Below the pieces are notes generated by a model. That model ran no database searches. It saw only the letters and a list, made by a program, of their open reading frames with translations, and was not told where the DNA came from. Of a stretch of DNA of 18,347 nt, positions 1-18,347 are shown piece by piece. A program made the translations under genes and the position numbers. The number at the start of each line of letters is the position of its first letter. Within the stretch, counting starts at the first letter, position 1. Source of the DNA: Candidatus Thorarchaeota archaeon (GTDB taxonomy: Archaea > Asgardarchaeota > Thorarchaeia > Thorarchaeales > Thorarchaeaceae); NCBI GenBank assembly GCA_046758445.1, contig JBHIAE010000055.1:1-18347 (forward strand). The letters run 5' to 3'.

Positions 1-11
1 GAGATGACAGA

Positions 12-18
12 CTTAAAT
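12..18 (+). promoter_or_regulatory. Putative archaeal TATA box (CTTAAAT) for the FabK-like/ADH/AOR operon
   Basis: AT-rich CTTAAAT ends about 25 nt upstream of ATG 43, the spacing expected for a leaderless or short-leader archaeal transcript. Position-based inference only. Confidence 0.4.
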
Positions 19-42
19 CGACGTTGGGACTAGCGGTGTCTT

Positions 43-1137: not shown

Positions 1138-1219
1138 GACGTCACAAATAAGAGGGCGTTCAATAACTGTCTGGCTGTTAGGGCGAGATGCCAGAGAACG
1201 TGCTCTGAGGTTGCGGAAG

Positions 1220-2395
1220 ATGTCATGGGAATTCAACATGCCAAAGGTCGTTTTCGGAGAAGACTCGATTGAGGAGCTTGAGAGAGTCAAGGGCAAAAGT
1301 GCGTTCATAATCACCGACGAGGTGATTAACAAACTTGGTCTGGTAGACAAGGCCGTACAGATTCTGACTGACAACCAGTGGAGTATCGCTGTATGGGACT
1401 GCGCAGAACCGGATCCGCGAATATCGACCGTTCGTGAAGCTTCTGTAGGCATCAGAGAATTCGGCGCTGACACGATAGTTGCAATCGGTGGGGGTAGTGT
1501 CATGGACACTGCGAAAGCAGCATGGGTCCTCTATGCGAAACCCGACATGGACCTGACAGCCCTTTCACCGTTTGATGAGCTCGGAGTGGCTGAGAAAGCA
1601 AAGCTAGTCTGTATTCCAACCACTGCCGGCACGGGTTCAGAGGTGACTCATTCCGTAGTGATACGTGAAGACGAAACCGGACGCAAGTTTGCGACAGTAA
1701 ACTCTGAACTAGTCGCGGACCTCGCAATCCTCGACCCCTATTTCGTAAAGGACCTTCCCAAGAACCTCACAGCCTATACGGGAATGGACGCGTTGACTCA
1801 CTCGGTGGAGGCCTACGTGTCGTCTTGGAAGAACGACATATCGGACGGATGTGCCATGAAGGCCGTCAAGATGGTGTTTGAGTGGTTGCCAAAATCTGTA
1901 GAGAACTTGGATGACATTGAGGCGAGGGAAAAGATGCTTGTTGCTGCCAGTCTTGCAGGTATGGCTTTCGGTAACTCCCAGGTTGCACTCTCGCACTCAC
2001 TTGGTCACAGCATGGGCTCAGTACTCAGACTTCATCATGGTCTCTCCGTGGGGATGGCTCTTCCATATACGATTGAGTACAGCTGCAAGGGAGTGCCTGA
2101 TGCGGCCCGTCATTATTCCGAGCTTGCCAGCCTGATTGGAATCCCGGGAAAGAGACACGTGAGTGTAGCTAGGAAGTTTGCCCAGGCAATACGTGAGCTC
2201 ATGGATAGCATAGGAAGCCCAACAAGCCTGAAGGCTGCCAAGGTCAAGAAGAAGGACTTCAAGGCCGGTCTCGACAATCTTGTGAAATACACAATGATGG
2301 ATGCTGCCATCACAATGAATCCCCGAAACACTGACAGCACAATCATCCGCAAGATATACGAATACATGTTCGAAGGCAATCCAATCGACTTCTGA
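1220..2395 (+). CDS. Iron-containing (type III) alcohol dehydrogenase
   Basis: Start moved from 1115 to ATG 1220 (MSWEFNMPKVVFG), which has GAGGT upstream and avoids overlap with the previous gene. Motifs: GGGSVMD, PTTAGTGSEVT, AILDP; metal ligands in DALTH, LSHSLGH, LHHG. Confidence 0.93.
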   Translation: MSWEFNMPKVVFGEDSIEELERVKGKSAFIITDEVINKLGLVDKAVQILTDNQWSIAVWDCAEPDPRISTVREASVGIREFGADTIVAIGGGSVMDTAKAAWVLYAKPDMDLTALSPFDELGVAEKAKLVCIPTTAGTGSEVTHSVVIREDETGRKFATVNSELVADLAILDPYFVKDLPKNLTAYTGMDALTHSVEAYVSSWKNDISDGCAMKAVKMVFEWLPKSVENLDDIEAREKMLVAASLAGMAFGNSQVALSHSLGHSMGSVLRLHHGLSVGMALPYTIEYSCKGVPDAARHYSELASLIGIPGKRHVSVARKFAQAIRELMDSIGSPTSLKAAKVKKKDFKAGLDNLVKYTMMDAAITMNPRNTDSTIIRKIYEYMFEGNPIDF

Positions 2396-2399
2396 TGGA

Positions 2400-4226: not shown

Positions 4227-4246
4227 CGCAGGAACAGATGGCTTGA

Positions 4247-5755
4247 CTAGGAAAGGTCGGAAAGTTGTCGGAGAATTGACTTCAAGAGATTGTATAGAAC
4301 TCCCACATCAGCAATCTTCAGCTTCTCATCCGGGGTATGAGGGTTCTTCAGACTAGGCCCGATTGACGCCATTTGTATGCCAGGTATCTTCGCTCCAACA
4401 ATACCACACTCAAGCCCAGCGTGGATCGCCTCAACCGTGACGCTCTTTCCAAGCTCACTCTCGTAGCGCTTCCTTACAAACTGAAGAAACGGACTGTTAG
4501 GGTTAGGCGCCCACCCCGGATATGGCGGCTTCATCGTCACTTCCCATCCACCGAGTCTTCCGAGATCAGAGAGAGCCAAGCGAAACGATTCTAGCTCCTC
4601 GTCGATATTCCCTCTAGCTGACAGAAGCACAGTTACAGTATCTCCCTCTGACTTGATTATAGCCAGGTTGTTGGATGTTTCAACAAGACCATCAACGGCG
4701 GGAGAAAAGCGTACAGGGCCATGAGGAAGAGCGTGAACAGTGCGGACAATCTTGACTGAGTCATCCACAGAGAAACGGGGCTCAGACTCGCTCTTGTTCC
4801 ATTTGATTTCAAGTTTCGGCTCAAGGACTTCTGCTCCAGGCTCCGGACTTTTGTAGTAATTCAAGATGGCATCGCGCTCAGAAATGAGTGTCTCCTCTAC
4901 CCTGGCGGCTCTGTCAGCAGTGACTCCGAACCTGACAGTCGAATCACGAGTAATCGCATTGGCTTTGCTGCCTCCGTTCCAGTCACATAACATCACTCCG
5001 GTTTCGCGGACGATTCTCGAGAGGATTCTGGCGACTAGTTTGTTGGCGTTAGCACGAGGCAAATGAATATCGACACCAGAATGACCACCAAACAATCCAG
5101 ATACTGCTAGTTCTAGAAAGGCTGTGGGGCCTCTTGGCTCGATGCGTTTCAGCTCCTTCTCAAAGAGGAGGTCTCCTCCGCCGGCTGAACCTATTGTGAT
5201 GGATCCAATTCCCTCAGAATCGATGTTGATCATCAGCTTGCTCTCTATGCCAAGACTCTCAGTGTCAAGTCCGAATGCACCAACTAGTCCTGTTTCCTCG
5301 TCGACAGTTGCAAGAATCTCAAGTGGACCATGGACCACATCGGAGTCGAATAACAGAGCAAGTGCAATCGATAGACCGATCCCATTGTCCCCTCCAAGTG
5401 TAGTGCCTTCAGCATCAACCCATTCACCGTTGTCCTGGACACGGACGGGGATTGGCTCATTATCAAAATCGAACCCGTCCGGTCGATCAGTTTCACAGAC
5501 CATGTCCATGTGACCCTGAAGAAGGATACGTGGCGAGGACTCCATTCCCTGTGTGGCAGACTTCTTTAGCAGGAGGTTTCCAGTCGAATCCTCTGAAATC
5601 GTTATGTCCAAGTTCATTGACTTCGACTGCTCTGCGACCCATTCCTTGATTTTGGCACGAATCTTCTCTTCCTTCTTGGATGCACGTGGAGTGCGAGTGA
5701 ACACGTCTTCAAATATCTCCCAGACCAGCTTCGGTTCAAGATTCTCGAGGACCAT
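4247..5755 (-). CDS. pepD: Aminoacyl-histidine dipeptidase (peptidase M20C, PepD)
   Basis: Start moved to ATG at 5755 (MVLENLEPKLVWEIF) with GGAG upstream. Motifs: PRASKKEE, QGHMDMV, TTLGGDNGIG, DEETGL, NIDSE, GGHSGVDIH, VETSNNL, IHAGLECG, PHTPDE. Confidence 0.92.
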   Translation of the reverse strand: MVLENLEPKLVWEIFEDVFTRTPRASKKEEKIRAKIKEWVAEQSKSMNLDITISEDSTGNLLLKKSATQGMESSPRILLQGHMDMVCETDRPDGFDFDNEPIPVRVQDNGEWVDAEGTTLGGDNGIGLSIALALLFDSDVVHGPLEILATVDEETGLVGAFGLDTESLGIESKLMINIDSEGIGSITIGSAGGGDLLFEKELKRIEPRGPTAFLELAVSGLFGGHSGVDIHLPRANANKLVARILSRIVRETGVMLCDWNGGSKANAITRDSTVRFGVTADRAARVEETLISERDAILNYYKSPEPGAEVLEPKLEIKWNKSESEPRFSVDDSVKIVRTVHALPHGPVRFSPAVDGLVETSNNLAIIKSEGDTVTVLLSARGNIDEELESFRLALSDLGRLGGWEVTMKPPYPGWAPNPNSPFLQFVRKRYESELGKSVTVEAIHAGLECGIVGAKIPGIQMASIGPSLKNPHTPDEKLKIADVGVLYNLLKSILRQLSDLS

Positions 5756-5793
5756 TTGGATGTCTCCGTAGAAACCCAGGAGCGAATGTCCTC

Positions 5794-5806
5794 TATTAAA
5801 CTTCTC
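5794..5806 (-). promoter_or_regulatory. Putative BRE + TATA box for pepD
   Basis: Minus strand reads GAGAAG-TTTAATA, a purine-rich BRE-like element directly before a TATA-like box, about 40 nt upstream of ATG 5755. This leaves room for a short leader carrying the GGAG SD. Confidence 0.55.
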
Positions 5807-5899
5807 ACAAGTCGTCAGCAAGTCAGTGAATCGCTTAATCCTCGGAATGCTTTTCATAGGCGTTGCACAACACAGTCGAGCATGTTGGTGGATTGGAAC

Positions 5900-6781
5900 A
5901 TGTTATTTGATCCAGAGATTACAATATTCCTACGCGACCTTATCCCTTGGGCGGGAGAAGTCTTAGGATTCATCAGCGAAGTCGGCGATCTTCTCTTCTA
6001 TGTCGGTGTAATCTTGATAGCATACTGGACCTTCGGCAAGAGAGAAGCTATCCTGACTTCAGTTGTGATGACTGTTTCACTCTTTTCCAACTACTGGTTG
6101 AAGTATGCGATTGCGAATCCGAGGCCGCCCAACACTCCCCCGAACAACTATTGGTATGAAGGTGTAGAAGCGACGAACTTCAGCACACCCAGTGGACACG
6201 CACATAACTCAGCGACCTTCTACGGTTGGATTTCAGCGAAAGTGAAGACATGGTGGATGCTGTTCGTTTCCATTATTGTCGTCCTTCTAATTGGCTTCTC
6301 AAGGGTCTACCTTGGTGTACACTATCTGGGAGACGTGTTGTTGGGATGGGGCATAGGAATCGTAACGGTGTTGGTCATCTTCCAGATTGAGAGACCGTTT
6401 ACCAGCTTCGCGTCGCAATACAAATCAGAATACCTCTGGCTGGCTCTCTCAGCCTTCGCGTTCCTTTTGGTACTCATCAGCTCTTTCCTCCCATACCCAC
6501 CAGCTGACAATTTTGGCGCATATGGAGGATTAGTAATGGGACTAGGAGTTGCCGTCCCGCTGGAGCAGAAGTACGTCGGCTTCGAAACCGGGTCTGCTAT
6601 CAAAGTTACACACATGGCTGTGCGGGTAGTGGTCGGCCTAGTGCTGGTATTAGGTTTGATGCTGGGTCTTTCGGGACTGCTGCCAACAACCCAGATCTGG
6701 CTCAGGACCCTCCGCTACTTCCTAGTGGTTCTGGTGGGCGTCTTCATTTGGCCCCTGATATTCAAGAAGGCGGGGCTGTGA
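5900..6781 (+). CDS. PAP2-family integral membrane phosphatase (lipid or polyprenyl phosphate phosphatase-like)
   Basis: All three PAP2 motifs are intact: KYAIANPRP, PSGH, SRVYLGVHYLGD. Multiple hydrophobic helices. Start set at ATG 5900 (GGTGG upstream); ATG 5882 is an alternative. The 5756 start would fill the whole divergent promoter region. Confidence 0.9.
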   Translation: MLFDPEITIFLRDLIPWAGEVLGFISEVGDLLFYVGVILIAYWTFGKREAILTSVVMTVSLFSNYWLKYAIANPRPPNTPPNNYWYEGVEATNFSTPSGHAHNSATFYGWISAKVKTWWMLFVSIIVVLLIGFSRVYLGVHYLGDVLLGWGIGIVTVLVIFQIERPFTSFASQYKSEYLWLALSAFAFLLVLISSFLPYPPADNFGAYGGLVMGLGVAVPLEQKYVGFETGSAIKVTHMAVRVVVGLVLVLGLMLGLSGLLPTTQIWLRTLRYFLVVLVGVFIWPLIFKKAGL

Positions 6782-6955
6782 ATACCGAACGGAAGGTCCC
6801 GTTCTTCGAGTCGAAGGTCAACTTATCCTACGGCCGGAAAGAGAAAGAACTCTCGAAACAGTCTACAATCATCAGCTGCAATTCCGAACCAACCGTATTG
6901 TTTTCCTCGGTAGATTCAATAGACGCAATTAAGTGGAGAAACTTTGGTGAGTTCC

Positions 6956-7675
6956 ATGCTTGAGAAGTTCAGCACACCGTTGGCTAGTCCATTCTATCCG
7001 AGACCGCCATACCTATACAAGGACGCAGAGCTATTCCTAGCGCTCTTCAACCCAACAGAAGAGTCCCTAGAGAAGATGCTGCCAGACCCTCTGAAACCTT
7101 CTCAGTTGCCACTTGCAGCGCTGCTGTTTGGCAAGATGCCCTGTGTGGAAACTGGGACCTTCATAGAGTCAGCCCTCCTCGTGCAGTGCGTATTTGAGAA
7201 CATTGAAACTGGAGAAGAAGAGGTCGGGGTATACTTCTCACACAACTACGTGGATACGGACATTGCCCAAGCTTGCGGGAGAGAGATATGGGGGTATCCT
7301 CGCAAGATCGCCAAGACCACTATGAGATGGAGAAAAGACACGCTTACAGCATCAACCAAGAGGGATGGAAACACACTGTTCAAGGCAAAGTGCAAGTTTG
7401 ATGATGAGGGTGAATGGATTGACAGCGGCCCAAATGTCAATATCAAGGTCATACCTAGCGTGACCGGGGAATCATTCGACCTAGCTGTCGTGACCGCAGC
7501 ATACCTGACCTACGATATCCGAAACGGTCGCTCGGGCGAGGTCAACCTAGAGATCAATGGTGGGCCAGATGATGACTTCAGTCTAGTTGAGATAGATACA
7601 CCGATGCTTGGGATCTACTTTGACTGCGACATACATTTGCCACCTGGCAAGGTAGTGGCAAAGCTGAAGTCTTGA
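6956..7675 (+). CDS. Acetoacetate decarboxylase-like (ADC superfamily) protein with atypical active site
   Basis: 'STPLASPFYPRPPY', 'LPDPL', 'FIES', 'GREIWGYPRK' and 'VNIKVIPS' align by eye with Adc proteins. ATG 6956 is preceded by the SD GGTGA (6946-6950). Confidence 0.85.
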   Translation: MLEKFSTPLASPFYPRPPYLYKDAELFLALFNPTEESLEKMLPDPLKPSQLPLAALLFGKMPCVETGTFIESALLVQCVFENIETGEEEVGVYFSHNYVDTDIAQACGREIWGYPRKIAKTTMRWRKDTLTASTKRDGNTLFKAKCKFDDEGEWIDSGPNVNIKVIPSVTGESFDLAVVTAAYLTYDIRNGRSGEVNLEINGGPDDDFSLVEIDTPMLGIYFDCDIHLPPGKVVAKLKS

Positions 7676-7679
7676 GTAA

Positions 7680-8324
7680 TCAGAACTCAATCCAGCCAAA
7701 ATACGCAAGGATCGAGGTCAAAGCTACAACCTCTCTTTCAGGCATCTGCGTCATCTCAATGATGTCACGAATCGTGCGTGTGCCACTCGCACTCTGCTGG
7801 AGAATCTCCAGCTTCACATCGACTTCGCCTACACGCCAAGGAATCGGATTTCCCTTGTCGAGCGATTTCGGAACTGAGTCGAGGCTAATGTTCACAAGTG
7901 GCAACTCTTTGATCACTGCAAGTGCGAAGTTCTTGTAGCGGCGTATATCACCGATATCATCTCTGAGTGCCAACTTGTACTCCTTCTCAAAACCACGAAG
8001 CATCTTCACTAACCGGTCCCGATATACTCCTTCCTCATGCCCGCTTGTGAGACTCATCAGGCCAATGGATATTTCTCCGGGCTCAAAGATGTAGGAGAAG
8101 TTCGACCATCGAATTGATCGTATGTCATCACCGGTGAACTGCATAATGGCTCGGAGAAGTGCCGCCCTGACATCGTGGTTGACATCTGTAGATCCATCGT
8201 ACGGGACATATAACAGCAGCTCACCACCGTCTATACCAAGGAACATGATATGCTGGATGGGGGTTACATCAACCGAGCCGCTCAATTTCGCAGTCCACAC
8301 TTGTTTTTGGATAGTCAGACCCAT
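7680..8324 (-). CDS. Hypothetical protein, predicted longin-like domain plus C-terminal winged helix (NPRL2/Npr2-like)
   Basis: 214-aa ORF filling the gap between convergent genes. The N-terminal beta-beta-alpha-beta-beta-beta-alpha pattern ends in 'FEKEY..L...GDIRRYKNF', typical of Asgard longin-like proteins. The C-terminus 'GTRTIRDIIEMTQMPEREVVALTSILAYFGWI' is wHTH-like. The CDS is confident; the fold is an inference. Confidence 0.65.
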   Translation of the reverse strand: MGLTIQKQVWTAKLSGSVDVTPIQHIMFLGIDGGELLLYVPYDGSTDVNHDVRAALLRAIMQFTGDDIRSIRWSNFSYIFEPGEISIGLMSLTSGHEEGVYRDRLVKMLRGFEKEYKLALRDDIGDIRRYKNFALAVIKELPLVNISLDSVPKSLDKGNPIPWRVGEVDVKLEILQQSASGTRTIRDIIEMTQMPEREVVALTSILAYFGWIEF

Positions 8325-8333
8325 TTTCAGTTC

Positions 8334-8340
8334 AAAAAAG
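8334..8340 (-). terminator. Possible oligo-T archaeal terminator after the ABC permease
   Basis: Minus strand CTTTTTT about 35 nt after the permease stop at 8374. It lies only about 10 nt before the next ATG (8324), so its role is ambiguous. Confidence 0.3.
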
Positions 8341-8373
8341 AATGTTGCGTCTATCTAGCTGTAGATTCCTGGT

Positions 8374-10110
8374 CTAAAGATACTCGGAAGCTTCAATCTG
8401 CGCCAGCTTGACCCCTGCACTGTGAGAGTAGTGGTTGTATAGATAGAGGCAAGCCAACCCTAACAGTCCAAGCACACCGTAGGCCGTCAACGCGCCAATG
8501 ATAGGGCCATAGAGTGGACTGAGAAAGAGCCCTGATCCGACAACACCATAGATTCCTATGTAGCCCACCACATATGGCACCAATTGTGCTCTCAGCATTG
8601 ACCACCCTCTGATTGGCATTTGGACTGGCGCTCCTCTTTGTCTTAGAACCATTCTCTCTGCCTTGAAATCGCCACCCATGGCGGCCGCATTTGCGGCGAT
8701 GGCTCCAGCCGCAAGGCTGATGAAGATACAAGCAATGGGCACTCCCGGGACGAAAGGCAAGATGGTAGGACTAATGAAGAGCAGCAAAACTGAAACTATG
8801 ATACTAGCTACCAAGACAAATGGCACGGCACTGATGACCTTGCCCTTCACATAATCGGCCATGTTTGTGGCTGCCAGTTGCAGATTCATCAGGTTCCTGC
8901 CTTCGTATACAATCTCATAACCTGCGAAATACACTCCGTAAGACACTGCAAAAGGAACCGCTGCAGCGAGGATAAGCAATGGAGAAAACTCCATAGCCAT
9001 CTCACCTACAGCTACGAATGGTATCACCAAGAAGATCACAAACCTAACGGGACCAATCAGATAGTTTGCAAGTACTCTTCCTTCTCTCCGTATCGATGCG
9101 ATGTTGTACCACATTGAAACACTGATGATTTGGTTTAGCCGTATACCAGGAAGCGGTTGAGGATCCCACGTGGTATGTGAGGTGCGGATTTCATCGGCAG
9201 AAGTTCTCTTCGAACCACTGGCAAGCCATCCGCTGTAGTGAGCCATCTCACTAACGTAGGAGTTCGCGTAGGCAAGTCCGAGACTTAGCGCGACAAACAG
9301 CATAGCAAGGAGCACATCTGAAATGTTCAGGGAAGCACCTATCAACGCTCCAAGGGAAAGGGTACTTACTGCATATCCAGGACTGATGTCAGAAGAGAGC
9401 CCGAGTGATTGAGCGATTTCAAATAGCCATTGGAAAATGTCAGATCCATTCGATGTGTATAGTGTGAGATAGTATACTGCATAGACGACGATGGCCAGAC
9501 TACTTCCAACGAACCAGCCGATCTGCTTGAGAGTTCTCCGACCTGCGAGAAGACGAGAGAAGAACAGGCCAAATAGACCTCCGATTGATACACCAATCGC
9601 CACTAGAGCTAGCATGAGTACTGCGAACACGGCTACCGATAGAACTGCAAAGGGGGCTGTGGAAACAATACTGAGGCCGATGAAGATAGGGACACCAATG
9701 CTCAGGAACAGTATGGAATTGTTCAAGATCACTAGTATTGTCTTCTCAAGAAAGACTGTACGCATCGTCAAAGGCATCGTAAGAAGGTATTCCATGCGTT
9801 GACTGTTTCCGACAGTTGTTGCGGACACCATGATTGACCCTATGAACGAGAATATCAGAATGAAATTGAACAAGGTTGCTCCAATATCCAGGTTGTCATT
9901 CACAATCTGGGCAAAATTGCTCCATCCAATAACTGGAATGAATGATAGAATAGCCCAGATTATGGCGATTCCAACAAGTGCGACTAGGATTACTGGGCGG
10001 AAACGTTTGAACGCGCTTTCCTGTTTTGTTCGCTTACCTCTGGCTCCAGTGAGTCTGAAGGTTTGGTTGAGGTCCTGCTTCAACAGGACCCATAGGTCTG
10101 ACAGTGTCAA
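8374..10110 (-). CDS. ABC-2 type exporter permease (large, two-repeat membrane subunit)
   Basis: 578 aa, many hydrophobic segments, with 'MEYLLTMPL' and 'EGRNLMNLQLA' half-repeat motifs typical of ABC-2 permeases. The TTG start overlaps the ATPase TGA (TTGA). Confidence 0.85.
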   Translation of the reverse strand: MTLSDLWVLLKQDLNQTFRLTGARGKRTKQESAFKRFRPVILVALVGIAIIWAILSFIPVIGWSNFAQIVNDNLDIGATLFNFILIFSFIGSIMVSATTVGNSQRMEYLLTMPLTMRTVFLEKTILVILNNSILFLSIGVPIFIGLSIVSTAPFAVLSVAVFAVLMLALVAIGVSIGGLFGLFFSRLLAGRRTLKQIGWFVGSSLAIVVYAVYYLTLYTSNGSDIFQWLFEIAQSLGLSSDISPGYAVSTLSLGALIGASLNISDVLLAMLFVALSLGLAYANSYVSEMAHYSGWLASGSKRTSADEIRTSHTTWDPQPLPGIRLNQIISVSMWYNIASIRREGRVLANYLIGPVRFVIFLVIPFVAVGEMAMEFSPLLILAAAVPFAVSYGVYFAGYEIVYEGRNLMNLQLAATNMADYVKGKVISAVPFVLVASIIVSVLLLFISPTILPFVPGVPIACIFISLAAGAIAANAAAMGGDFKAERMVLRQRGAPVQMPIRGWSMLRAQLVPYVVGYIGIYGVVGSGLFLSPLYGPIIGALTAYGVLGLLGLACLYLYNHYSHSAGVKLAQIEASEYL

Positions 10111-10877
10111 CCGGAGGGGACCCCTCCCAGAAACTCTGCAATCCTTTGCATGTCAGGGCCGCCTGTTAGTGAAAGGAATATCTCTTCCAGGCTGCTCTGA
10201 CCCTTTGCCTTCAACCGAAGTTCAGCCATGGTTCCCTCAGCAATCATGCCTCCCTCGTTGATTATCCCTATGCGGTCGCACATCTGTTCTGCAATCTCGA
10301 GGACGTGAGTACTCATGAGAATGGTGGCCCCTTTTGCGCGAAGGCCATTCAGTATCTCCTTGATTGTGGCAGCACCTCGTGGGTCAATGCCGGCCTGAAC
10401 TTCATCAAGAATGATGACCTGAGGGCGATGTATCAGAGCAGCAACCAGGCTGGTCTTTCTTGACATACCCTTGGAATAGGTTTCGATGAGATCATCACTT
10501 GCATCTTTGATGTCAAGTAATGTCAAAAGCTCCTCAATCTCCTCTTCACGCTCAGGGCCTCTTGGCATACGCCAGACGTCGCTGACGTAGTTCACGTACT
10601 CCCAACCTGTGAGTCTCTCCGGGAGTATAGGCTCCTCAGGAACATATCCCATTACACGCTTTGCAGCAACAATGTCTGTCGCAATGTCGTGACCAAGGAT
10701 ACGGGCCGTGCCCTCTGTCGGCTTTAGGATGCCCAGAAGCATTCTCATGGTCGTAGATTTTCCAGATCCATTGGGTCCCAAGAGGCCATATATCTCTCCA
10801 GTCGCCACCTGAAAGCTCAGGTTGTTCACTGCAGTGAACTCGCTGAACATCTTTGTCAGTCCTAGAGCCTCAATCAT
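10107..10877 (-). CDS. ABC-2 type transporter ATP-binding protein
   Basis: Walker A GPNGSGKST, signature YSKGM, Walker B VIILDE, H-loop STH. Confidence 0.95.
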   Translation of the reverse strand: MIEALGLTKMFSEFTAVNNLSFQVATGEIYGLLGPNGSGKSTTMRMLLGILKPTEGTARILGHDIATDIVAAKRVMGYVPEEPILPERLTGWEYVNYVSDVWRMPRGPEREEEIEELLTLLDIKDASDDLIETYSKGMSRKTSLVAALIHRPQVIILDEVQAGIDPRGAATIKEILNGLRAKGATILMSTHVLEIAEQMCDRIGIINEGGMIAEGTMAELRLKAKGQSSLEEIFLSLTGGPDMQRIAEFLGGVPSG

Positions 10878-10910
10878 CTAGAGTCATATTGGAAGCTTGG
10901 ATATGGGGAT

Positions 10911-10926
10911 TTATGCCTTGGCATAA
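10911..10926. promoter_or_regulatory. Inverted repeat TTATGCC-TT-GGCATAA, candidate transcription-factor operator
   Basis: Perfect 7-bp arms with a 2-nt spacer in the 126-bp divergent intergenic region between the ABC ATPase and lipS2. It overlaps a TATA-like CATAAAT on the minus strand. Confidence 0.5.
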
Positions 10927-11003
10927 GTGTAGACTCGGTTACCATTACTAAACGGTAATAAGAGGGATATCACCATCGTGCCAGGCGAAGCGGTGAATAG
11001 TCC

Positions 11004-12140
11004 ATGAAGACTACCGACCAGTCTCCGTGTAGTGACACTGATGCAACCTCCAGAGAGTCACCCGAGTATGTGAGAACAAGCATGGCTGCGGCCATGACGA
11101 TGGGGAAGATTCCTGGTAAGTTCTACCGAGATGCCAAGCTTCACTGCATCAACCTTCTTCTCACGTATGAGGACGGTTGCCATGCGAAATGCGCATACTG
11201 TGGACTCTCCGGTTCAAGACAGACAGATACTGATTGGGTTGATAGTAGCTTCATCCGAGTGGACTGGCCAATCTTTTCACTGAATGATGTCACAAAGGCG
11301 GTTACTGATGGAACGTCACCACATGTGGAGCGGGTGTGTCTATCTATGATCACACATGGCCGTGCACGAAATGATTGCATAGAGGTAGTTTCCCGACTAA
11401 AGGAAGTCATACCAAGAATCTCTGTTTTGATAACACCCACGATAGTGAATGAGGATTGGCTTCGCCGTCTAAGGGAGGCAGGTGTAGACATGGTAGGCAT
11501 AGCTGTGGATGGAGCTACGCCGGAAGTCTTCGAGGATTTGCGCGGAAAGGGAGTCCGCGGACCTCATAAGTGGGCCAAGTACTGGGAAACTGTAGAGCAA
11601 GCAGTGGAGGTGTTCGGCCCCGGCAACGTCGGAGTACACTTGATTGTTGGCATCGGTGAAACCGAGCGACAGATGATCGAAACGATCCAGAGAGCGCAGG
11701 ACATTGGGGCTCGCACTCATCTCTTCTCGTTCTTTCCAGAAGAGGGTTCTGCGATGGAGGACCATCCGCAGCCGCCCCTTGGAAGCTACAGGAGAGTTCA
11801 AGCAGCACGTTACATGATTAACTACGGGCTAGGCTCATTTGCGGACATGAGTTTCAATGAGCGAGGTCAGCTTGTTGAGTTCGGACTAAACCAAGAGGTC
11901 TTTGAAGACATGATGAACAAGGGTGAGGCCTTCATGACATCAGGATGTCGTGGAAACACAATGGAAAATGCATGCAACCGACCGATGGGGAATTGCACGC
12001 CCTTCCAAGCAGCCATTGGCCACTGGCGCAACTTCCCAATTGTGCCAGAAGAGAAAGATGTAGAGAAGATTCGTGACCAACTTTGGGATTATTCTCTCAC
12101 GTACGAGGTGGATGACTCTTACCTTGACAGCGAGCCGTAG
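11004..12140 (+). CDS. lipS2: Radical SAM sulfur-insertion subunit of the two-component lipoyl synthase (LipS2-like)
   Basis: CxxxCxxC = CHAKCAYC. C-terminal TSGC-x8-CNRP resembles the LipS2 TxGCPxC(N/D)RP motif. Adjacent to a second radical SAM gene and a lipoate ligase. SD GGTGA at 10992-10996. Confidence 0.82.
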   Translation: MKTTDQSPCSDTDATSRESPEYVRTSMAAAMTMGKIPGKFYRDAKLHCINLLLTYEDGCHAKCAYCGLSGSRQTDTDWVDSSFIRVDWPIFSLNDVTKAVTDGTSPHVERVCLSMITHGRARNDCIEVVSRLKEVIPRISVLITPTIVNEDWLRRLREAGVDMVGIAVDGATPEVFEDLRGKGVRGPHKWAKYWETVEQAVEVFGPGNVGVHLIVGIGETERQMIETIQRAQDIGARTHLFSFFPEEGSAMEDHPQPPLGSYRRVQAARYMINYGLGSFADMSFNERGQLVEFGLNQEVFEDMMNKGEAFMTSGCRGNTMENACNRPMGNCTPFQAAIGHWRNFPIVPEEKDVEKIRDQLWDYSLTYEVDDSYLDSEP

Positions 12141-13125
12141 TTTCGTAGATGATTGTTTCATTCTGCCAGAGGAGCAGCTCACTAGCCTGTTTGAGAGGGC
12201 ATTCTCGATCTCCAGAGAGTCCTTTCCTGAGAAGATCGCATTCTATGCCCCGGGGATGGTGCACTACAAGACAGAGTTTCACGAGGCAACTGACCCATAC
12301 AGGTTTCCCAGTGTTTCAATCACAGGCAGGGGATGCGCGCTCAATTGCGAACACTGCCATGGTCAGCTGCTTGAAACTATGATACCTGCAACAACACCTG
12401 AGGCGCTCTGGGAAGTCTGCAATGAGGTCAAGGAGAGAGGGGGCACTGGGTGCCTCATCAGTGGAGGGGCCACGCCTCTAGGAAACACGCCGATGCAGCC
12501 CTTCATTCCAATCATAAAGAGAATCAAGGACGAGCTCGGTCTCGACATTGTGATCCACACAGGAATCGTCTACCCAGAAGTGGCAGAGGCCCTCGGTGAT
12601 GCTGGCATTGATGGCGCAATGATGGATGTCATTGGCTCGGAAGCAACGCTTAGAGAGATATACCACCTGGATGTGTCAGTAGACGTATTTGACAAGTCCA
12701 TGACGCTCCTAGAGGACAACGGAGTGCCACACATGCCACACATCATTGCTGGTCTTCACTTCGGTACACTCAAAGGTGAGGCCGAAGCAGTGAGAATGAT
12801 TGCTGACCACAATCCTACATCAGTGGTTGTGGTTGCGTTCATGCCATTGGATTGCACTCCAATGGAGAAGGTGCAACCAGCAAGCCCCATAGACATTGCA
12901 CGAGTGATTGCAGCTGCCCGAATTGCAATCCCGGACAAACCGCTGATTCTAGGCTGTGCCCGACCTCTCGGTATGCATCGAAGGACGACGGACAGGCTGG
13001 CTATTGACGCTGGAGTGAATGGAATCGCGTACCCATCCGATGAAGGATACCAATATGCGTTGGAAAGAGGGATGTCTGCAGCCTTCGCCAACGAATGTTG
13101 CTCATTGATTAGCAGAGTATTATGA
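12112..13125 (+). CDS. lipS1: Radical SAM sulfur-insertion subunit of the two-component lipoyl synthase (LipS1-like)
   Basis: 'FPSVSITGRGCALNCEHC' (CxxxCxxC), 'GCLISGG', and the LipS1-type GC(M/A)R (LGCARP) and terminal CC (ECCS) motifs. Start uncertain: GTG 12073, ATG 12112 or TTG 12124 after GAGGTG. Confidence 0.82.
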   Translation: MTLTLTASRSFVDDCFILPEEQLTSLFERAFSISRESFPEKIAFYAPGMVHYKTEFHEATDPYRFPSVSITGRGCALNCEHCHGQLLETMIPATTPEALWEVCNEVKERGGTGCLISGGATPLGNTPMQPFIPIIKRIKDELGLDIVIHTGIVYPEVAEALGDAGIDGAMMDVIGSEATLREIYHLDVSVDVFDKSMTLLEDNGVPHMPHIIAGLHFGTLKGEAEAVRMIADHNPTSVVVVAFMPLDCTPMEKVQPASPIDIARVIAAARIAIPDKPLILGCARPLGMHRRTTDRLAIDAGVNGIAYPSDEGYQYALERGMSAAFANECCSLISRVL

Positions 13126-14748
13126 TTGTGTAGGTGGCTTCAACTGACAGACTGGCGACTCTTGGACACGGGCGTTCTCACTGGCGCAGAGAACATGACT
13201 CTGGATGATGTGATATTGGATTGTCGGTCAGAGAATGAGAGCCCAAACACTATGAGGTTCCTTCAGTTCAATCCAGGAACCGTTCTAATAGGCTATCATC
13301 AGTCTGTAAATCAGGAGGTTAGAGTTGACTACTGTAGAGAGCACGGCGTGGACATAAACCGCAGGATAACAGGAGGTGGAGCAATCCTATTCACACCCAC
13401 TTGCCTGGGGTGGGAGATCTTCGCCGACAAGTCAGCATCCAAAGTAGGTGAGCTAAGAAGAGATCTCGGCAGATTGGCCCGATTCGTTTGCCAAGGTGCA
13501 GTAGCTGGTCTCCAACGACTCGGCGTGAATGCCGAGTTCAGGACGAAGAATGACATCGAGATAGAAGGGAGGAAGATATCTGGAACGGGCGGGACTGAGA
13601 GGAATAGCTCCTTCCTGTATCAAGGAACGCTACTTGTCGACTTTGACGTAGAGTTGATGCTGCGTTCTCTCAGGATTCCCGTTGAGAAGCTGAGGGACAA
13701 GGAAATCGAAAGCGTCAAGGAGAGAGTTACCTGCTTGAAATGGGAGCTTGGCTACGTCCCCTCCATTACAGACATCAAGGAGGCCTTCGCTGCAGGTTTC
13801 GAGGAGGTCCTGGGCTCAAGCCTAGAGCCTCAGGGACTCTTGCCTGTGGAGAGTGATTTGTTTCGCAAGAAACTCCCCTATTTTGAGTCTGATGAGTGGG
13901 TGTACATGGTGAGGAAGCCTGAGGACTCGTCAGGTCAGGTCAGCGCGATGAGGAAGACTCCTGGTGGACTCGTGAGAGTGTCATTAGCGCTCGATGTTCC
14001 GGGCAATTTCATTGTTAGCTCATTCATCACAGGAGACTTTCAAGCCTTCCCGCAGAGGGCCATTATGGACCTCGAGGCCAGGTTGAAGAACGCCTCAGCT
14101 GATGATGAATCGATTCGGGCGGTCGTAAATGATTTCTTTAATGAAACCGGAACGAGGGTATTCGGGGTCGAAGCTGACGACTTCGTGGGACTCATCCTTG
14201 AGGCAGTGAAGAAGACCTCTTTCGTTAAGTACGGCGTGTCATTGGAGGACTCCAATCACCTGATGACGGTGAACTTCATGCCTGATGAACTTGATGAACA
14301 GAGATTCGATTACGTGCTTCTGCCTTATTGTGCGAAGCTGATAGATTGTGAGTACAGGTGGAAAGAAGGGTGCTCAATTTGTGGTGCCTGTACGACCAGT
14401 GACATCTATGAGATAATAGACGAGATAGGCGTGCCAGTGCACACAGTCCAGAATTATGAACATCTTATAGAAACCATTGAAAAGTTCAGGCAAGAGGGAG
14501 CAAGGGGCTACATCGGATCATGCTGCGAAGCTTTCTACAGTAAGCATCACTATGACTTCGTGGAAACAGGAGTGCCTGCGCTCCTTGTGGACGTTGATGA
14601 CTCTACCTGCTACGACTTAGGAAAAGAACATGACGCATATGCCGGCAAGTTTGAAGGCCAGACGACGCTCAAGACTGACCTACTCGCACACATCATTAGG
14701 ACCATGTGGCAGAGAGGGAACCTTAGGGCTGAGGTGAAGTCGCATTAA
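13126..14748 (+). CDS. lplA: Lipoate/octanoate-protein ligase (catalytic + LplB-like accessory domain) fused to a C-terminal Cys-rich DUF116-like domain
   Basis: Catalytic domain: WRLLDTG, NMTLD, IGYHQ, RRITGGGA, NDIEIEGRKISG (catalytic Lys). Accessory domain: KTPGGL..ITGDF. Tail: LLPYC..C..CSICGAC..GSCC. The start may be CTG 13144 after AGGTGG. Confidence 0.88.
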   Translation: MCRWLQLTDWRLLDTGVLTGAENMTLDDVILDCRSENESPNTMRFLQFNPGTVLIGYHQSVNQEVRVDYCREHGVDINRRITGGGAILFTPTCLGWEIFADKSASKVGELRRDLGRLARFVCQGAVAGLQRLGVNAEFRTKNDIEIEGRKISGTGGTERNSSFLYQGTLLVDFDVELMLRSLRIPVEKLRDKEIESVKERVTCLKWELGYVPSITDIKEAFAAGFEEVLGSSLEPQGLLPVESDLFRKKLPYFESDEWVYMVRKPEDSSGQVSAMRKTPGGLVRVSLALDVPGNFIVSSFITGDFQAFPQRAIMDLEARLKNASADDESIRAVVNDFFNETGTRVFGVEADDFVGLILEAVKKTSFVKYGVSLEDSNHLMTVNFMPDELDEQRFDYVLLPYCAKLIDCEYRWKEGCSICGACTTSDIYEIIDEIGVPVHTVQNYEHLIETIEKFRQEGARGYIGSCCEAFYSKHHYDFVETGVPALLVDVDDSTCYDLGKEHDAYAGKFEGQTTLKTDLLAHIIRTMWQRGNLRAEVKSH

Positions 14749-15802
14749 GAGCTACGACGTTACAGTCGTCGGGGCAGGGCCCGCAGGCTCTGCAACGGCC
14801 ATCGGTTGCGCTTCTGCAGGTCTAGATGTTCTGCTCTTGGAGCAGGGCCGCCGAAACAGACACAAGCCGTGCGGAGGGGTCCTTCCGCTTGTGGCTCCAG
14901 AAATCATAGAAGACATCGTTGGAGCTGCGATTCCTGATGACGTAAGAACCACGCCCAAACAACTTGGGCTATACTATGTGCCTCCAAGCGGAAGGAACAA
15001 CAGCGGCAGAGTGAAAGGATACGAAATCCACAACATCGATCGAGATAGGTTTGACCAGTGGCTCCGTGACCTGGCGGAAGATGCTGGAGCTGAGATCAGT
15101 TATGAAACCCGGTTCGTGGAGCTTAGGCGTTCTGATGGCTTTGATGTTCTTGCTACAACAAAGAGCGGCCGAATGTCAGCAAAATCAATCTACCTAGTAG
15201 GAGCTGACGGCGTCAGATCGAAGGTCAGAAACACTCTGTTCCCTGAACATCCTACTCCCGTGATGATTGTCGGCCAAGAACACTGGCGAGGATCGGGCGA
15301 CTTTGAAGACTGTTTCTACGGGTTCTTCAGGGATGATGTTTCAATCTCATACGCCTATCTGATACCCAAAGATAGAACGCTGCTTCTTGGCCTTGGAGTT
15401 GTCCCACAGAAAGAGCCAAGCATTGTAGAAGCGCACGACAGATTCAGGAGCTGGTTGTCAGTTGAGTTCTCTTTTGCACCAGAGCGATTAGTAAAGAAGG
15501 AAGCATGGTCTATCCCCTTCGGATACTTCATTCCCGGCCAAGGGAATGCAATCCTCGTAGGTGATGCCGCTGGCTTGTGCAATCCCCTCTCAGGAGAAGG
15601 TATTCGGCCTGGGGTTGAGTGTGCAGAAGCTGCTTCGGACGCAATCATCAACTCAGGCGAGATTCCCCCTGCGGAGAGATACGCAAATGACATCAAGAGC
15701 CTGGCTGATATGATTGAGAATCTGAATCGCTTCGTTAGACAGCTCGACAACGCTGGACGTGAAGCATTCGTAGGTGAGGAGCTGTTTCGAGGCCGTGGCT
15801 AG
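14744..15802 (+). CDS. Geranylgeranyl-reductase-family FAD-dependent oxidoreductase (LipT-like by context)
   Basis: The frame extends upstream of the track's TTG 14837 to give IKSYDVTVVGAGPAGSATA (Rossmann GxGxxG). Also KPCGG, VGADG, VGDAAGLCNPLSGEGI. An in-frame TGA at 14735 bounds the ORF; ATT 14744 sits 6 nt after GAGGTGA. Confidence 0.85.
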   Translation: MKSYDVTVVGAGPAGSATAIGCASAGLDVLLLEQGRRNRHKPCGGVLPLVAPEIIEDIVGAAIPDDVRTTPKQLGLYYVPPSGRNNSGRVKGYEIHNIDRDRFDQWLRDLAEDAGAEISYETRFVELRRSDGFDVLATTKSGRMSAKSIYLVGADGVRSKVRNTLFPEHPTPVMIVGQEHWRGSGDFEDCFYGFFRDDVSISYAYLIPKDRTLLLGLGVVPQKEPSIVEAHDRFRSWLSVEFSFAPERLVKKEAWSIPFGYFIPGQGNAILVGDAAGLCNPLSGEGIRPGVECAEAASDAIINSGEIPPAERYANDIKSLADMIENLNRFVRQLDNAGREAFVGEELFRGRG

Positions 15803-15869
15803 CTCCATGAGAGCAGTTGTCTAGCAGATTCGCCAATGCTATATGGTATGCACCCTCAAACTGTGTGTG

Positions 15870-16943
15870 ATGCGTTCCTTTCGAGTGCGTGCTCCAGGTA
15901 GGGTATGCTTGTTTGGAGAACATAGCGACTACCTTGGATTACCTGTTATCCCAGCGGCTCTTGACATGGCAATTGAGCTAGAGGCGACACCTCGAGAGGA
16001 CAACAGGATCAGTGTTGACTACCCGGATACCAATGACCGCGATACCTTCTCATTGGAAACGGAAACTGACTACCGCCATTCGCGCGACTATCTCAGGAGT
16101 GCGTTCAATCTTCTCTTCCGACGTGGGATGAAGCCCAAACATGGTTGGAATCTTCGAGTAACTGGGGAAATTCCCATATCTGCAGGGCTCTCAAGCTCGT
16201 CAGCGCTCACAGTGGCCGCGGTTATGACCTTCGCGAGAATGGCATCCATCGAACTTGAGGTGACTAATCTCGCACAGACTGCCTACGAAGCTGAGGTGAC
16301 TGAGTTTGGAGAGAGCGGAGGAATGATGGACCACTTCTCTTCTGCATATGGACACATAATCCATGTAGATCCTGGATTGAAGTACAAGACCACACGCCTT
16401 CCTGCGCAGATTGAGGGTCTAGTGATTGGTGATTCCCTTGAGAAGAAAGAAGATACCGTCGGAGACCTGAGGAGAATCAGATCTGAGGTTGAGAGAGAGT
16501 ACGAGATGCTGGCGACAGTGATTCCTCACTTTGACCAGAGAACAACATCATCGGACAAGGTATTCGAGGTTTCTCCTGAGGAGCCAACGGAGTCAAGAAG
16601 AATGGCGCAGGCAACACTCCTCAACAGAGACCTTACACAACAAGCATTTGGACTGCTAAAGGACAAGAAACCGAATCCAAAGGAGGTGGGTGAGCTGCTT
16701 GACCTCCACCATGATCTGCTCAGATCTCGTTTGAAGAGATCAACGCAAAGAATTGAGGACATGATTGTGGCGGCCAAATCAGCAGGGGCTCTGGGTTGCA
16801 AGATAAACGGCAGTGGGGGAGGAGGTACGATGCTGGCACTTGCTCCAGGGAATGAGAACCAGGTAGCTGAAGCTATCAAAGACGCTGGCGGAGTCCCTTA
16901 TCATGTCAGAATCGGTCCTGGTGCCCGAATAGAGGAAGCTTGA
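15870..16943 (+). CDS. GHMP-family kinase, galactokinase-like
   Basis: Motifs: APGRVCLFGEHSDY (GalK-type motif I), IPISAGLSSSSA (ATP-binding loop), GGMMD, GALGCKINGSGGGG. Start ATG 15870; ATG 15843 is an alternative. Confidence 0.85.
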   Translation: MRSFRVRAPGRVCLFGEHSDYLGLPVIPAALDMAIELEATPREDNRISVDYPDTNDRDTFSLETETDYRHSRDYLRSAFNLLFRRGMKPKHGWNLRVTGEIPISAGLSSSSALTVAAVMTFARMASIELEVTNLAQTAYEAEVTEFGESGGMMDHFSSAYGHIIHVDPGLKYKTTRLPAQIEGLVIGDSLEKKEDTVGDLRRIRSEVEREYEMLATVIPHFDQRTTSSDKVFEVSPEEPTESRRMAQATLLNRDLTQQAFGLLKDKKPNPKEVGELLDLHHDLLRSRLKRSTQRIEDMIVAAKSAGALGCKINGSGGGGTMLALAPGNENQVAEAIKDAGGVPYHVRIGPGARIEEA

Positions 16944-16944
16944 T

Positions 16945-17745
16945 TCAAGTCGCAAGTGGATGTTTGGGTTCTTCCCCTTTGCACTCTAAACCGATCGCAT
17001 CGCAAACTGCATACCTGTGGTTATATCCGGCTATGTGTAGCGGGGCGTCTCCAAGCTCTCTGTCAACCGTCATTGCGCCTGTACATGGATAGGCGTGATG
17101 GGCCTTTGCAATGACGTCGAAGAGACCCTCTGTGTCAGAGATGTCGTGGCCTTTCACCTTCTGTGATACATACCAAGCACATCCACAGGGTGAGGATCTC
17201 ATCACTGCAATCTCAGCTATTCGACCGTTGCTTACAGTGGCGTCAAATACCGGCATCCCGATTCTATACCTGTCCATGAACGCGTCTATGACCTCTCCAT
17301 GTCCATGCGTTAGAGTGCAGAATGGCTTTGGAAAAGCCGACTCTGTGCCAATTGCATCAAGAGATTCCTTGACTTGTTCTCGAAGGCCGGGAGGCAACCA
17401 TGTTGTATCTTCTATTGGGGCGATGACCGCCTTCGCGCCTGTCTTCTTCACCAATAGGTCAGCTGAAGCAATGAGGTCATGGTGAACACCAATGAGTAGA
17501 AGGACATCACATTGCTGAAGATTGATACCCTCAAGCATCTCCATTGGATCATCGAACATCTTGGAGGCGGGAGCATCTATCCTAAACATTCCGACGATAT
17601 CGCCGACAAAAGTCCCATAGGTAACCCTGCAGTCACCGCAGGTAGGAGCGCAACCTTCACAGAAGGTCTTGAAGTTGATGAGATTCCCCAGCACTCGCTC
17701 GGCAAAGACATCACCATAAATGGTAACCAATCGCAATGTGACCAC
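16945..17745 (-). CDS. DUF166-family Cys-rich conserved archaeal protein
   Basis: 'PKPFC', 'RSSPCGCAWYV' and 'YPCTGAM..D..LH.AG' match my recollection of DUF166 proteins. There is an extra N-terminal CxxCxxxCxxC. The start may be TTG 17736 after GGGTGG. Confidence 0.7.
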   Translation of the reverse strand: MVTLRLVTIYGDVFAERVLGNLINFKTFCEGCAPTCGDCRVTYGTFVGDIVGMFRIDAPASKMFDDPMEMLEGINLQQCDVLLLIGVHHDLIASADLLVKKTGAKAVIAPIEDTTWLPPGLREQVKESLDAIGTESAFPKPFCTLTHGHGEVIDAFMDRYRIGMPVFDATVSNGRIAEIAVMRSSPCGCAWYVSQKVKGHDISDTEGLFDVIAKAHHAYPCTGAMTVDRELGDAPLHIAGYNHRYAVCDAIGLECKGEEPKHPLAT

Positions 17746-17824
17746 CCATGTAACACGAAAGACGACGTGCTTTCCTACTAAAGCTTGGTGATTGTGGCGG
17801 AATCAGCATGATGACGATGAATTG

Positions 17825-18346
17825 CTAGCCTTCGGCCAGTTCCTTCATCCGTGCCTCTACAATCTCTAAGACTTCAGACTGAAGCTTCCTTCCGTCATCG
17901 ATTATCTTCTGTACCTCTTCGGAGGTCTTCTTGACAAATCCCTTGTCCTTGATATTGCCAAGGTTGATCCTCACATTCAGAGCTGCACCCTCGATTGCAG
18001 CGAACAGAGCGTATGCAGCTACTCCTGCGTCAGTTATCGAGTTGATGTTGCCTTTTGCAGCCGCAACCTTGGCATGCTCCAGCGCCTTGAAAGAGTGTCG
18101 CATCGTCTGGAGCGGGACCTCTGCTGCATGGATTGTGGCACTCTCTGTGAACGCCTCTTTCTGCTTCCTTTCTTTAGGGGTCTCCTCAGCCATCTTGAAA
18201 GTGTCCATCACCGCATCGAATGCAGCGGAGTCCTTCTCTACAAGGTCCATGAGTACCCCACGATCGTTCTCGGCTGCACGACGATGCTGAAGCATCTCCT
18301 CCTTGATTGCTACAAACCTACGACCAGATAGGGAAAGACCAGTCAC
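17825..18346 (-). CDS. Formiminotetrahydrofolate cyclodeaminase domain (C-terminal part of FTCD or a stand-alone cyclodeaminase), 5' end outside the window
   Basis: 'LVEKDSAAFDAVM', 'AAEVPL', 'GNINSITDAGVA' and 'EGAALNVRINL' are FTCD_C motifs. The ORF runs off the window edge. Confidence 0.85.
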   Translation of the reverse strand: MTGLSLSGRRFVAIKEEMLQHRRAAENDRGVLMDLVEKDSAAFDAVMDTFKMAEETPKERKQKEAFTESATIHAAEVPLQTMRHSFKALEHAKVAAAKGNINSITDAGVAAYALFAAIEGAALNVRINLGNIKDKGFVKKTSEEVQKIIDDGRKLQSEVLEIVEARMKELAEG

Positions 18347-18347
18347 C

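Follow-up and report, generated by a model that had tools for sequence, protein, structure and literature searches.

Why should a lipoate-protein ligase end in a tail that carries eight cysteines? The question is raised by an open reading frame (ORF) in a stretch of 18,347 nucleotides from Candidatus Thorarchaeota archaeon (assembly GCA_046758445.1, contig JBHIAE010000055.1, positions 1-18,347; G+C content about 50%), called the window throughout this study. The tail resembles the domain family DUF116, and the ligase gene lies between genes for the radical S-adenosylmethionine (SAM) lipoyl synthase subunits LipS2 and LipS1 and a flavoprotein gene of the LipT type. Lipoyl synthases destroy an iron-sulfur (Fe-S) cluster in each turnover and require low-potential electrons. 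An earlier reading made from the sequence alone had proposed that the tail binds an Fe-S cluster and either relays electrons from the flavoprotein or renews clusters or sulfur for LipS1 and LipS2, which would complete a self-contained lipoylation machine and give DUF116 a function. Here, we describe the tail as part of a DUF116 subfamily, trace it through genomes of Archaea and Bacteria and weigh what it may do. Our preferred reading, put forward tentatively, is that the tail could well be an Fe-S redox module which connects the neighbouring flavoprotein with the radical SAM clusters in a complex anchored by the ligase.

Results

The DUF116-like tail and its eight cysteines

The ligase-DUF116 protein and its parts are as follows.

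13126..14748, plus strand: Lpl(AB)-DUF116 fusion protein, 540 aa from TTG 13126 (stop-free translation, Pfam, AlphaFold2 (AF2) model)
13186..14196, plus strand: lipoate-protein ligase part, with catalytic domain (residues 21-226) and LplB-like accessory domain (residues 277-357) (Pfam, Foldseek)
14164..14745, plus strand: DUF116-like tail (residues 347-540), a linker helix and a three-layer alpha/beta/alpha domain with a Cys-rich loop (PF01976, AF2)
14329..14391, plus strand: Cys cluster C402-x5-C408-x7-C416-x2-C419-x2-C422 (PYCAK...C.YR...GC..CG.C; homologue alignments)
14521..14526, plus strand: vicinal C466-C467 directly after a beta strand (YIGSCC; homologue alignments)
14608..14610, plus strand: C495 directly after a beta strand (DDSTCY), aligned with the GPC cysteine of canonical DUF116

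The eight cysteines that the sequence-only reading had listed were all found in the translation in the pattern given there, the last three within GSC466C467 and STC495. Its suggestion of a DUF116 relationship also held up when checked against Pfam: DUF116 (PF01976) matches residues 395-497 (nt 14308-14616, inside the segment 14300-14748 that had been assigned to the tail) with 31.3 bits (cut-off 25, E 1.7e-7), covering profile positions 41-143 of 155, and the genome-level search gave 33.8 bits. In the AF2 model the DUF116 domain exceeds the Pfam match and begins at about residue 347 (nt 14164) with the linker helix. All eight cysteines are 100% invariant across 112 full-length homologues and essentially invariant in 129 representatives that are 24-78% identical to the window protein, C466 being kept in 94% of the ubi-type branch described below; judged from these alignments, the eight-Cys pattern is far beyond chance. 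Besides the cysteines, K404, R411, E445, K473, Y496 and G507 are near-invariant.

The tail alone was modelled by AF2 with a predicted local distance difference test (pLDDT) score of 94.9. In the model the cysteines are placed immediately after strands (LLPYC, YIGSCC, DDSTCY) and in the intervening loop. They sit at the C-terminal strand ends, where flavodoxin-like folds usually bind their cofactor. A wide fold comparison with VIA-align returned generic flavodoxin, CheY and Rossmann folds and de novo designs only (best Z 7.1), with no relatives of the HdrB/CCG, ferredoxin or NifU type among them. Foldseek found no match of the tail in the PDB at E <= 1e-3, and the PDB sequence search gave no solved relative, its sole match being an insignificant Zn-ribbon (E 8.7). 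An ESM Atlas search with the tail retrieved only clusters of DUF116 (0.80-0.84) and a weak lead to Prismane (0.77). DUF116 had been predicted with HHpred to be flavodoxin-like and metal-binding, with a role in electron transfer (Makarova et al. 2015, PMC5898192), and the flavodoxin-like model of the tail agrees with this prediction. The hope that the tail would give DUF116 a function is only partly borne out, since the electron-transfer role was already predicted in that study, and what the tail adds is the first well-defined pathway context.

For comparison with canonical DUF116, three members were taken from genomes that also hold the tail type. They score 178-192 bits on PF01976 versus 40-52 bits for tails in this comparison and 31-52 bits for tails overall, and their seven conserved cysteines align with C402, C408, C416, C419, C422, C467 and C495, leaving C466 as an extra residue, so that only the second cysteine of the vicinal pair has a canonical counterpart. 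The N-terminal transmembrane region of DUF116 is absent here; because the ligase and a soluble linker helix stand before the tail, it represents a subfamily without transmembrane segment. In a tree rooted on canonical DUF116 the tails form one separate clade on a long branch, although the alignment has 136 columns and the deep branching order is thus tentative. A phmmer search with the tail against 1.84 billion cluster representatives gave 186 matches, nearly all in proteins ~500-560 aa long whose tail spans residues ~380-520; with just 186 matches, nearly all of them ligase fusions, the tail makes up a compact subfamily that is almost always found behind Lpl(AB). On sequence and model, we assign it, as a soluble domain with a flavodoxin-like fold, to a DUF116 subfamily of its own.

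The ligase part

LplA-B_cat (PF21948) matches residues 21-226 (6e-45) and Lip_prot_lig_C matches residues 277-357 weakly (21.8 bits, cut-off 24). The full-length AF2 model (pLDDT 93.9, predicted template modelling score (pTM) 0.92) was compared by Foldseek, and its first ~360 residues superpose on LplA structures such as 5iby (E 1.7e-23, TM-score 0.83 on the target); sequence and model together give the LplA/B catalytic and the LplB-type accessory domain that such a ligase should have. As had been claimed, E. coli-type LplA has no such tail, the LplA structures covering these first ~360 residues only. The ligase motifs RRITGGG and GRK150ISGTGG are present, and K150, the predicted acyl-adenylate-binding lysine, which we take to be the counterpart of K133 in E. 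coli LplA, is retained in 76 of 77 lipoate-type homologues. By motifs, profiles and model, the gene is predicted to encode a complete Lpl(AB) octanoate/lipoate:protein ligase. The database start of the fusion ORF is at 13162, giving 528 aa, and public annotations name such proteins either 'DUF116 domain-containing protein' or 'lipoate-protein ligase'.

A lipS2-lipS1-lpl(AB)/DUF116-lipT operon

The genes around the ligase follow each other on the plus strand in the order LipS2-like, LipS1-like, the 540-aa ligase ORF, a flavoprotein of the geranylgeranyl-reductase (GGR) family and a GHMP kinase, abutting or overlapping, and lipS2-lipS1-lpl(AB)/DUF116-lipT is a translationally coupled operon. Three of its products enter the argument below.

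11004..12140, plus strand: LipS2-type radical SAM lipoyl synthase subunit, 378 aa (NF053743, Pfam Radical_SAM, CxxxCxxC)
12073..13125, plus strand: LipS1-type radical SAM lipoyl synthase subunit (NF053742, Radical_SAM, BATS, CxxxCxxC)
14744..15802, plus strand: LipT-like GGR-family flavin adenine dinucleotide (FAD) flavoprotein (NCBIfam GG-red-SF 1.1e-29, GxGxxG)

Profile matches support the identities that had been proposed for the upstream and downstream neighbours. The NCBIfam models NF053743 and NF053742 are the top matches of the LipS2-like protein (223 bits, below the equivalog cut-off of 270) and of the LipS1-like protein (210 bits, below the cut-off of 230), respectively; the start codon of the latter is uncertain, the family match beginning at residue 75. 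The flavoprotein has the two attributes by which LipT is recognised, being a GGR-family FAD protein encoded within a lipS/lpl cluster, and it is 27% identical to the lipT product of lipS1-slpl(AB)-lipT-lipS2 clusters. Its frame overlaps the ligase stop and its GxGxxG motif sits upstream of the listed start. The sole start candidate 5' of this motif is ATT 14744, with no ATG, GTG or TTG there (window 14731-14839), and the Thorarchaeota relatives have ATG at this position, overlapping the ligase stop (ATGCCGGAATATGA); the ATT is either a rare start or an assembly base error.

Distribution and neighbourhood of the tail

A collection of species-representative genomes was scanned with a degenerate DNA pattern built on the Cys motif. 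At least 119 loci were found, a sample biased towards members that keep PYCAK...C...R...C..C..C exactly. The loci were sorted by tblastn with the window proteins, which split them cleanly into a lipoate type and a ubi type. There are 78 listed lipoate-type loci, or 86 once truncated and split forms are included, from about 20 phyla of Archaea and Bacteria, and their ligase part is 38-72% identical to that of the window. Within chunks of 8 kb, which are often partial, LipS1 or LipS2 was detected in 55 of the 78 listed loci and ubi genes in none of them. A Desulfovibrio (L085), for example, has its genes in the order lpl/DUF116-lipT-lipS1-lipS2.

Among the listed lipoate-type loci, LipT matches lie directly downstream of the tail in 37 of 38 cases. 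Of 63 listed loci that were informative, i.e. had enough downstream sequence, LipT follows the tail as the next gene or domain in 30, and a fused CdhB-like domain does so in 11; LipA takes this place in 2 loci and LipS directly in 3. The proposed tie to LipT is backed by this adjacency and by single Lpl-DUF116-LipT ORFs (P0151 and L040), although the proposed relay would not be obligatory, as clusters with LipT and a tail-less ligase exist.

Natural fusions and split forms

In the Aquificaceae the tail is followed by another domain: all 11 listed loci encode Lpl-DUF116-CdhB-like in one ORF of ~730 aa, e.g. L064:365-2578 (+) and L107:3757-5934 (+), and P0254 and P0260 share this order. There is no LipT beside these fusions and lipS1 lies elsewhere in the genome. 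The CdhB-like domain belongs to PF02552, the epsilon family of CO dehydrogenase (CODH), and the CODH epsilon subunit may have a flavin role. In the archaeal enzyme this subunit packs at an interface near a [4Fe-4S] cluster (PMC11493965). The CdhB-like partner of the tail in Aquificaceae is therefore suggestive.

In a metagenome-assembled genome of the Bacillota, L031:798-3305 (-) encodes an 836-aa triple fusion Lpl(AB)-DUF116-LipA, which matches canonical lipoyl synthase with 401 bits, and LipA is also encoded downstream of the tail in L123. Sporomusa silvacetica (L037:1521-7909 (-)) shows how the parts can be separated: its operon encodes an HdrD-like CCG/4Fe-4S protein, a GcvH-like protein, a tail-less Lpl(AB), LipT, LipS2, LipS1 and DUF116, the tail being a separate 189-aa gene that closes the lipS operon. 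This operon represents the system in split form, complete with an acceptor, and comes from an organism in culture. A stand-alone copy of the tail also lies upstream of 2-oxoacid dehydrogenase E1 genes in Desulfosporosinus. Taken together, these natural fusions and splits indicate that the tail tracks the sulfur-insertion machinery (LipS1/LipS2 or LipA) and a flavin-type partner and not the ligase reaction alone. No fusion longer than 945 aa was found, which is weak evidence. L079, which looked like an Lpl-like-DUF116-SCP2 fusion, was not counted owing to an in-frame stop.

Tail-bearing Asgard genomes and the source genome

Among 151 Asgard genomes, 29 carry the tail, always as a single copy in an ORF of ~520-620 aa. 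LipS1 is found in 28 of the 29, within ~5.5 kb of the tail in at least 22. The expectation that the fusion would co-occur with lipS1/lipS2 thus agrees with the Asgard genomes, and it fails as a general rule, because the fusion is also found apart from these genes, in the LipA fusion of the Bacillota and in ubiT-ubiU-ubiV operons of the Pseudomonadota. Two copies of LipS1 are present in 23 of the 29 tail-bearing versus 5 of the 122 tail-less genomes, and across the Asgard genomes the LipS copies linked to the tail are the lower-scoring set of paralogues.

The genome from which the window stems follows this pattern: it encodes a second LipS1 (C3:28641-29549), a second LipS2 (C42:2-1223) beside a plain LplA that is cut by the contig end, and two further LplA-like genes; no LipA was found in this genome. 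There is no gene for a lipoyl acceptor in the window, and the acceptors, two GcvH-like proteins and one E2-like lipoyl protein, are encoded outside it (candidates on C20, C48 and C27). The picture of a self-contained lipoylation machine had to be given up for this reason, and the additional LipS1 and LipS2 copies together with the remote acceptors lead us to view the window operon as a second, paralogous set for lipoate assembly without its own acceptor.

The ubi-type branch

About 31 ubi-type loci were listed, almost all from Pseudomonadota, with a ligase part that is 23-31% identical to that of the window. In 19 of the listed loci the gene adjoins two Peptidase_U32 genes and an SCP2 gene, the signature of ubiU/ubiV/ubiT (pathway in Pelosi et al. 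2019, PMC6747719), and near the listed loci no LipS1, LipS2 or LipT was found. The eight cysteines are kept. Of 52 members, 38 retain the ligase lysine and 14 have lost it; the Gly-rich motif is altered. In the tree, which rests on a short alignment, the ubi-type tails form a single clade nested among the lipoate-type tails (Shimodaira-Hasegawa-like approximate likelihood ratio test (SH-aLRT) 92). Because of this branch and the LipA fusion, we consider the role of the tail to be broader than LipS1/LipS2.

Many beta- and gammaproteobacteria, Acidithiobacillus and Ectothiorhodospira among them, have ubiT-ubiU-ubiV-like operons that are closed by the diverged Lpl-like-DUF116 gene. An example is L019:1515-3074 (-), with neighbours to 5657, and further loci are L034, L041, L046, L076, L078, L086, L091, L094, L095, L102, L106, L118 and L120. 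Lpl-like-DUF116 may belong to oxygen-independent ubiquinone synthesis as a component not recognised so far. One candidate partner, a radical SAM gene of 262 aa close to ubi-type loci, was dismissed because it proved to be an NrdG equivalog (199 bits) and lies on the opposite strand. In five genomes checked (four with ubi-type loci) lipS1 is present elsewhere in all five, and in three it belongs to a tail-less slpl(AB) cluster.

Other genes in the window

Upstream of the operon, genes for an NMO-family flavoprotein, an iron alcohol dehydrogenase and an aldehyde:ferredoxin oxidoreductase follow each other at window 43-4226 (+). A DUF166 protein (PF02593, 159.6 bits) is encoded downstream on the opposite strand (window 16945-17745 (-)).

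Discussion

A redox module as the preferred reading

How could a cysteine-rich tail on the ligase assist sulfur insertion? In the mechanism that we favour with reserve, the tail cysteines would bind one or two Fe-S clusters and form a built-in ferredoxin-like redox module. The module would accept electrons from the dedicated neighbouring flavoprotein, i.e. LipT here and the CdhB-like domain in Aquificaceae, and hand them on to the lipoyl synthase, whose radical SAM clusters would receive them first in LipS2 and then in LipS1. The ligase would meanwhile keep hold of the octanoylated acceptor, so that ligation and two reductive sulfur insertions could take place within one complex; the tail would be an accessory that is absent from some lineages. 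From the cysteine pattern and the gene context we infer that metal is bound, which way the electrons flow and that a complex is formed. LipT itself has been proposed as the electron source for LipS1/LipS2 (PMC10332631).

Several observations weigh against this reading. Among the listed informative loci, 17 of 63 have no flavoprotein partner adjoining the tail (something else or nothing was detected). In Acidithiobacillus ferrianus, Ectothiorhodospira marina and Thiohalorhabdus a tail-less sLpl(AB) is directly followed by LipT; these lipS1-slpl(AB)-lipT-lipS2 ligases are 357-389 aa long and end where the tail would begin, and the same genomes carry the ubi-type fusion elsewhere. The Thioalkalivibrio lipS1-slpl(AB)-lipT-lipS2 cluster, whose ligase may or may not carry the tail, is functional on an E. 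coli helper plasmid (PMC10332631), and no such domain is described for the two-part ligase of T. kodakarensis (PMC13692748). Given the tail-less sLpl(AB)-LipT clusters, the tail is an accessory and not universal, and these clusters together with the T. kodakarensis ligase indicate that it is dispensable for the core chemistry. Within the tail, the conserved K404, R411, K473 and H474 beside the cysteines could mean a substrate site and not a pure electron wire. Finally, the fold searches give no link from the tail to a known Fe-S protein.

Alternative roles of the tail

Known Fe-S cluster carriers have two to three cysteines at a dimer interface, and against this background it seems unlikely that the tail supplies clusters or sulfur, i.e. 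that a transferable Fe-S cluster or a persulfide on the vicinal cysteines rebuilds the auxiliary clusters of LipS1/LipS2 (or LipA) in the way NfuA/IscU do for E. coli LipA: seven or eight invariant cysteines in one compact domain look like fixed ligation. The tail is, on the other hand, fused directly before LipA in L031 and stays beside LipS1/LipS2 when it is split from the ligase in Sporomusa, both as expected for resupply. The recurrent fusion or adjacency of flavoproteins (LipT, CdhB-like) points to electron flow instead, and the ubi-type branch adjoins UbiU/UbiV, whose clusters seem not to be consumed in turnover. A need for resupply would fit the present state of the field, as the regeneration of the LipS1/LipS2 auxiliary clusters is stated to be unknown, with no demonstration in vitro or in vivo (PMC13692748). 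We give about the same low weight to the view that the cysteines hold one or two structural Zn ions and that the domain, without any redox function, just docks LipT, LipS1, LipS2 or the acceptor on the ligase. Eight cysteines could form two Cys4 Zn sites, the tail is packed rigidly on the ligase in the full-length model (pTM as given above), and the fold searches, which found no Fe-S fold relative, are in line with a scaffold. A flavodoxin-like domain with cysteines on its cofactor face is however not a Zn ribbon or knuckle, its CxxCxxC triplet has been described as ferredoxin-like (PMC5898192), all partners are redox or Fe-S enzymes, and the genomes with the fusion come mostly from groups that, judged by their names only, are commonly anaerobic.

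The tail could also serve the chemistry of LipT itself, either as a ferredoxin-like partner for a GGR-family reduction or as an HdrB/FTR-like thiol-disulfide site acting on the mercapto-octanoyl or lipoyl arm, in which case the radical SAM clusters would not be fed by it. LipT belongs to the geranylgeranyl-reductase family, of which at least one archaeal member needs a dedicated ferredoxin; tail and LipT show the tightest adjacency seen; a CC pair and conserved basic residues lie beside the cysteines; and an HdrD-like CCG protein is also encoded in the Sporomusa operon. We nevertheless regard this role as improbable, since a CdhB-like domain replaces LipT in Aquificaceae, the tail of the Bacillota is fused straight to LipA with no LipT, and LipT clusters without a tail exist. 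Least probable to us is a sensor of redox state or oxygen, in which an oxygen-labile cluster of the tail would keep the ligase off unless conditions allow the oxygen-sensitive synthases to work. Both branches do go along with pathways that are sensitive to oxygen or independent of it, namely the radical SAM lipoyl synthases and ubiU/ubiV, and in nearly all members the tail is covalently bound to the ligase; the split form in Sporomusa and the fusions with LipA, LipT and CdhB would nonetheless be unexpected for a regulator of the ligase only, and ubi-type members keep the cysteines yet lose the ligase lysine in the proportion given above.

Implications

The redox module remains the reading that we prefer, and it makes the eight-Cys tail a concrete, purifiable candidate for the missing link in the electron supply or regeneration of LipS1/LipS2. 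Our searches found no paper on DUF116/PF01976 that links the family to lipoate and no paper on lipoate pathways that mentions the tail domain. The tail gives DUF116, described as uncharacterised in the searched literature, its first well-defined pathway context. The ubi-type branch suggests that oxygen-independent ubiquinone synthesis has an unrecognised component. A wider proposal, which we put forward as speculation and consider rather doubtful, is that the DUF116 fold is a new Fe-S redox module, a dedicated electron conduit or cluster-repair station for oxygen-independent Fe-S enzymes that act on lipid-like substrates: LipS1/LipS2, LipA and, by exaptation in Pseudomonadota, the UbiU/UbiV hydroxylases. 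If true, this would provide a function for the whole orphan DUF116 family, including its membrane-anchored canonical form, and a candidate physiological reductant or regeneration route for LipS1/LipS2, none having been identified in the literature searched.

Comparison with known systems

Canonical DUF116 (COG1852, arCOG02078; e.g. MMP0162) and the tail are alike in matching PF01976 above the cut-off, in seven cysteines including CxxCxxC and in a flavodoxin-like globular part. They differ in that the canonical form has a hydrophobic N-terminal region of ~130 aa, whereas the tail has no membrane part and covers profile positions ~38-143 only. The ubi-type proteins of ubiT-ubiU-ubiV operons share the two-part architecture of the window protein. 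A ligase that is likewise fused to the sulfur-insertion step is described by the NCBIfam model NF053790 (LplA_LipA_fuse), which L031 matches in both halves; the model has 606 positions with no room for DUF116, and in L031 the tail is inserted between ligase and LipA. Unlike NF053790 proteins, the window protein lacks a fused synthase.

Close counterparts of the window operon are the LipS1/LipS2 system of T. kodakarensis (Jin 2020; Neti 2022; reviewed in PMC13692748) and the assembly of lipoate by sLpl(AB), LipS1/LipS2 and LipT (Cao et al. 2018; Tanabe et al. 2023, PMC10332631). The shared four functions, an Lpl(AB)-type ligase, two BioB-like radical SAM enzymes and a GGR-family flavoprotein, are encoded in one operon. 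An sHdr/LbpA context was not found in the window. The ligase part of the window protein is 40-44% identical to the ligases of the sulfur-oxidiser lipS1-slpl(AB)-lipT-lipS2 clusters, and it differs from sLpl(AB) by an extra domain of ~190 aa with eight cysteines.

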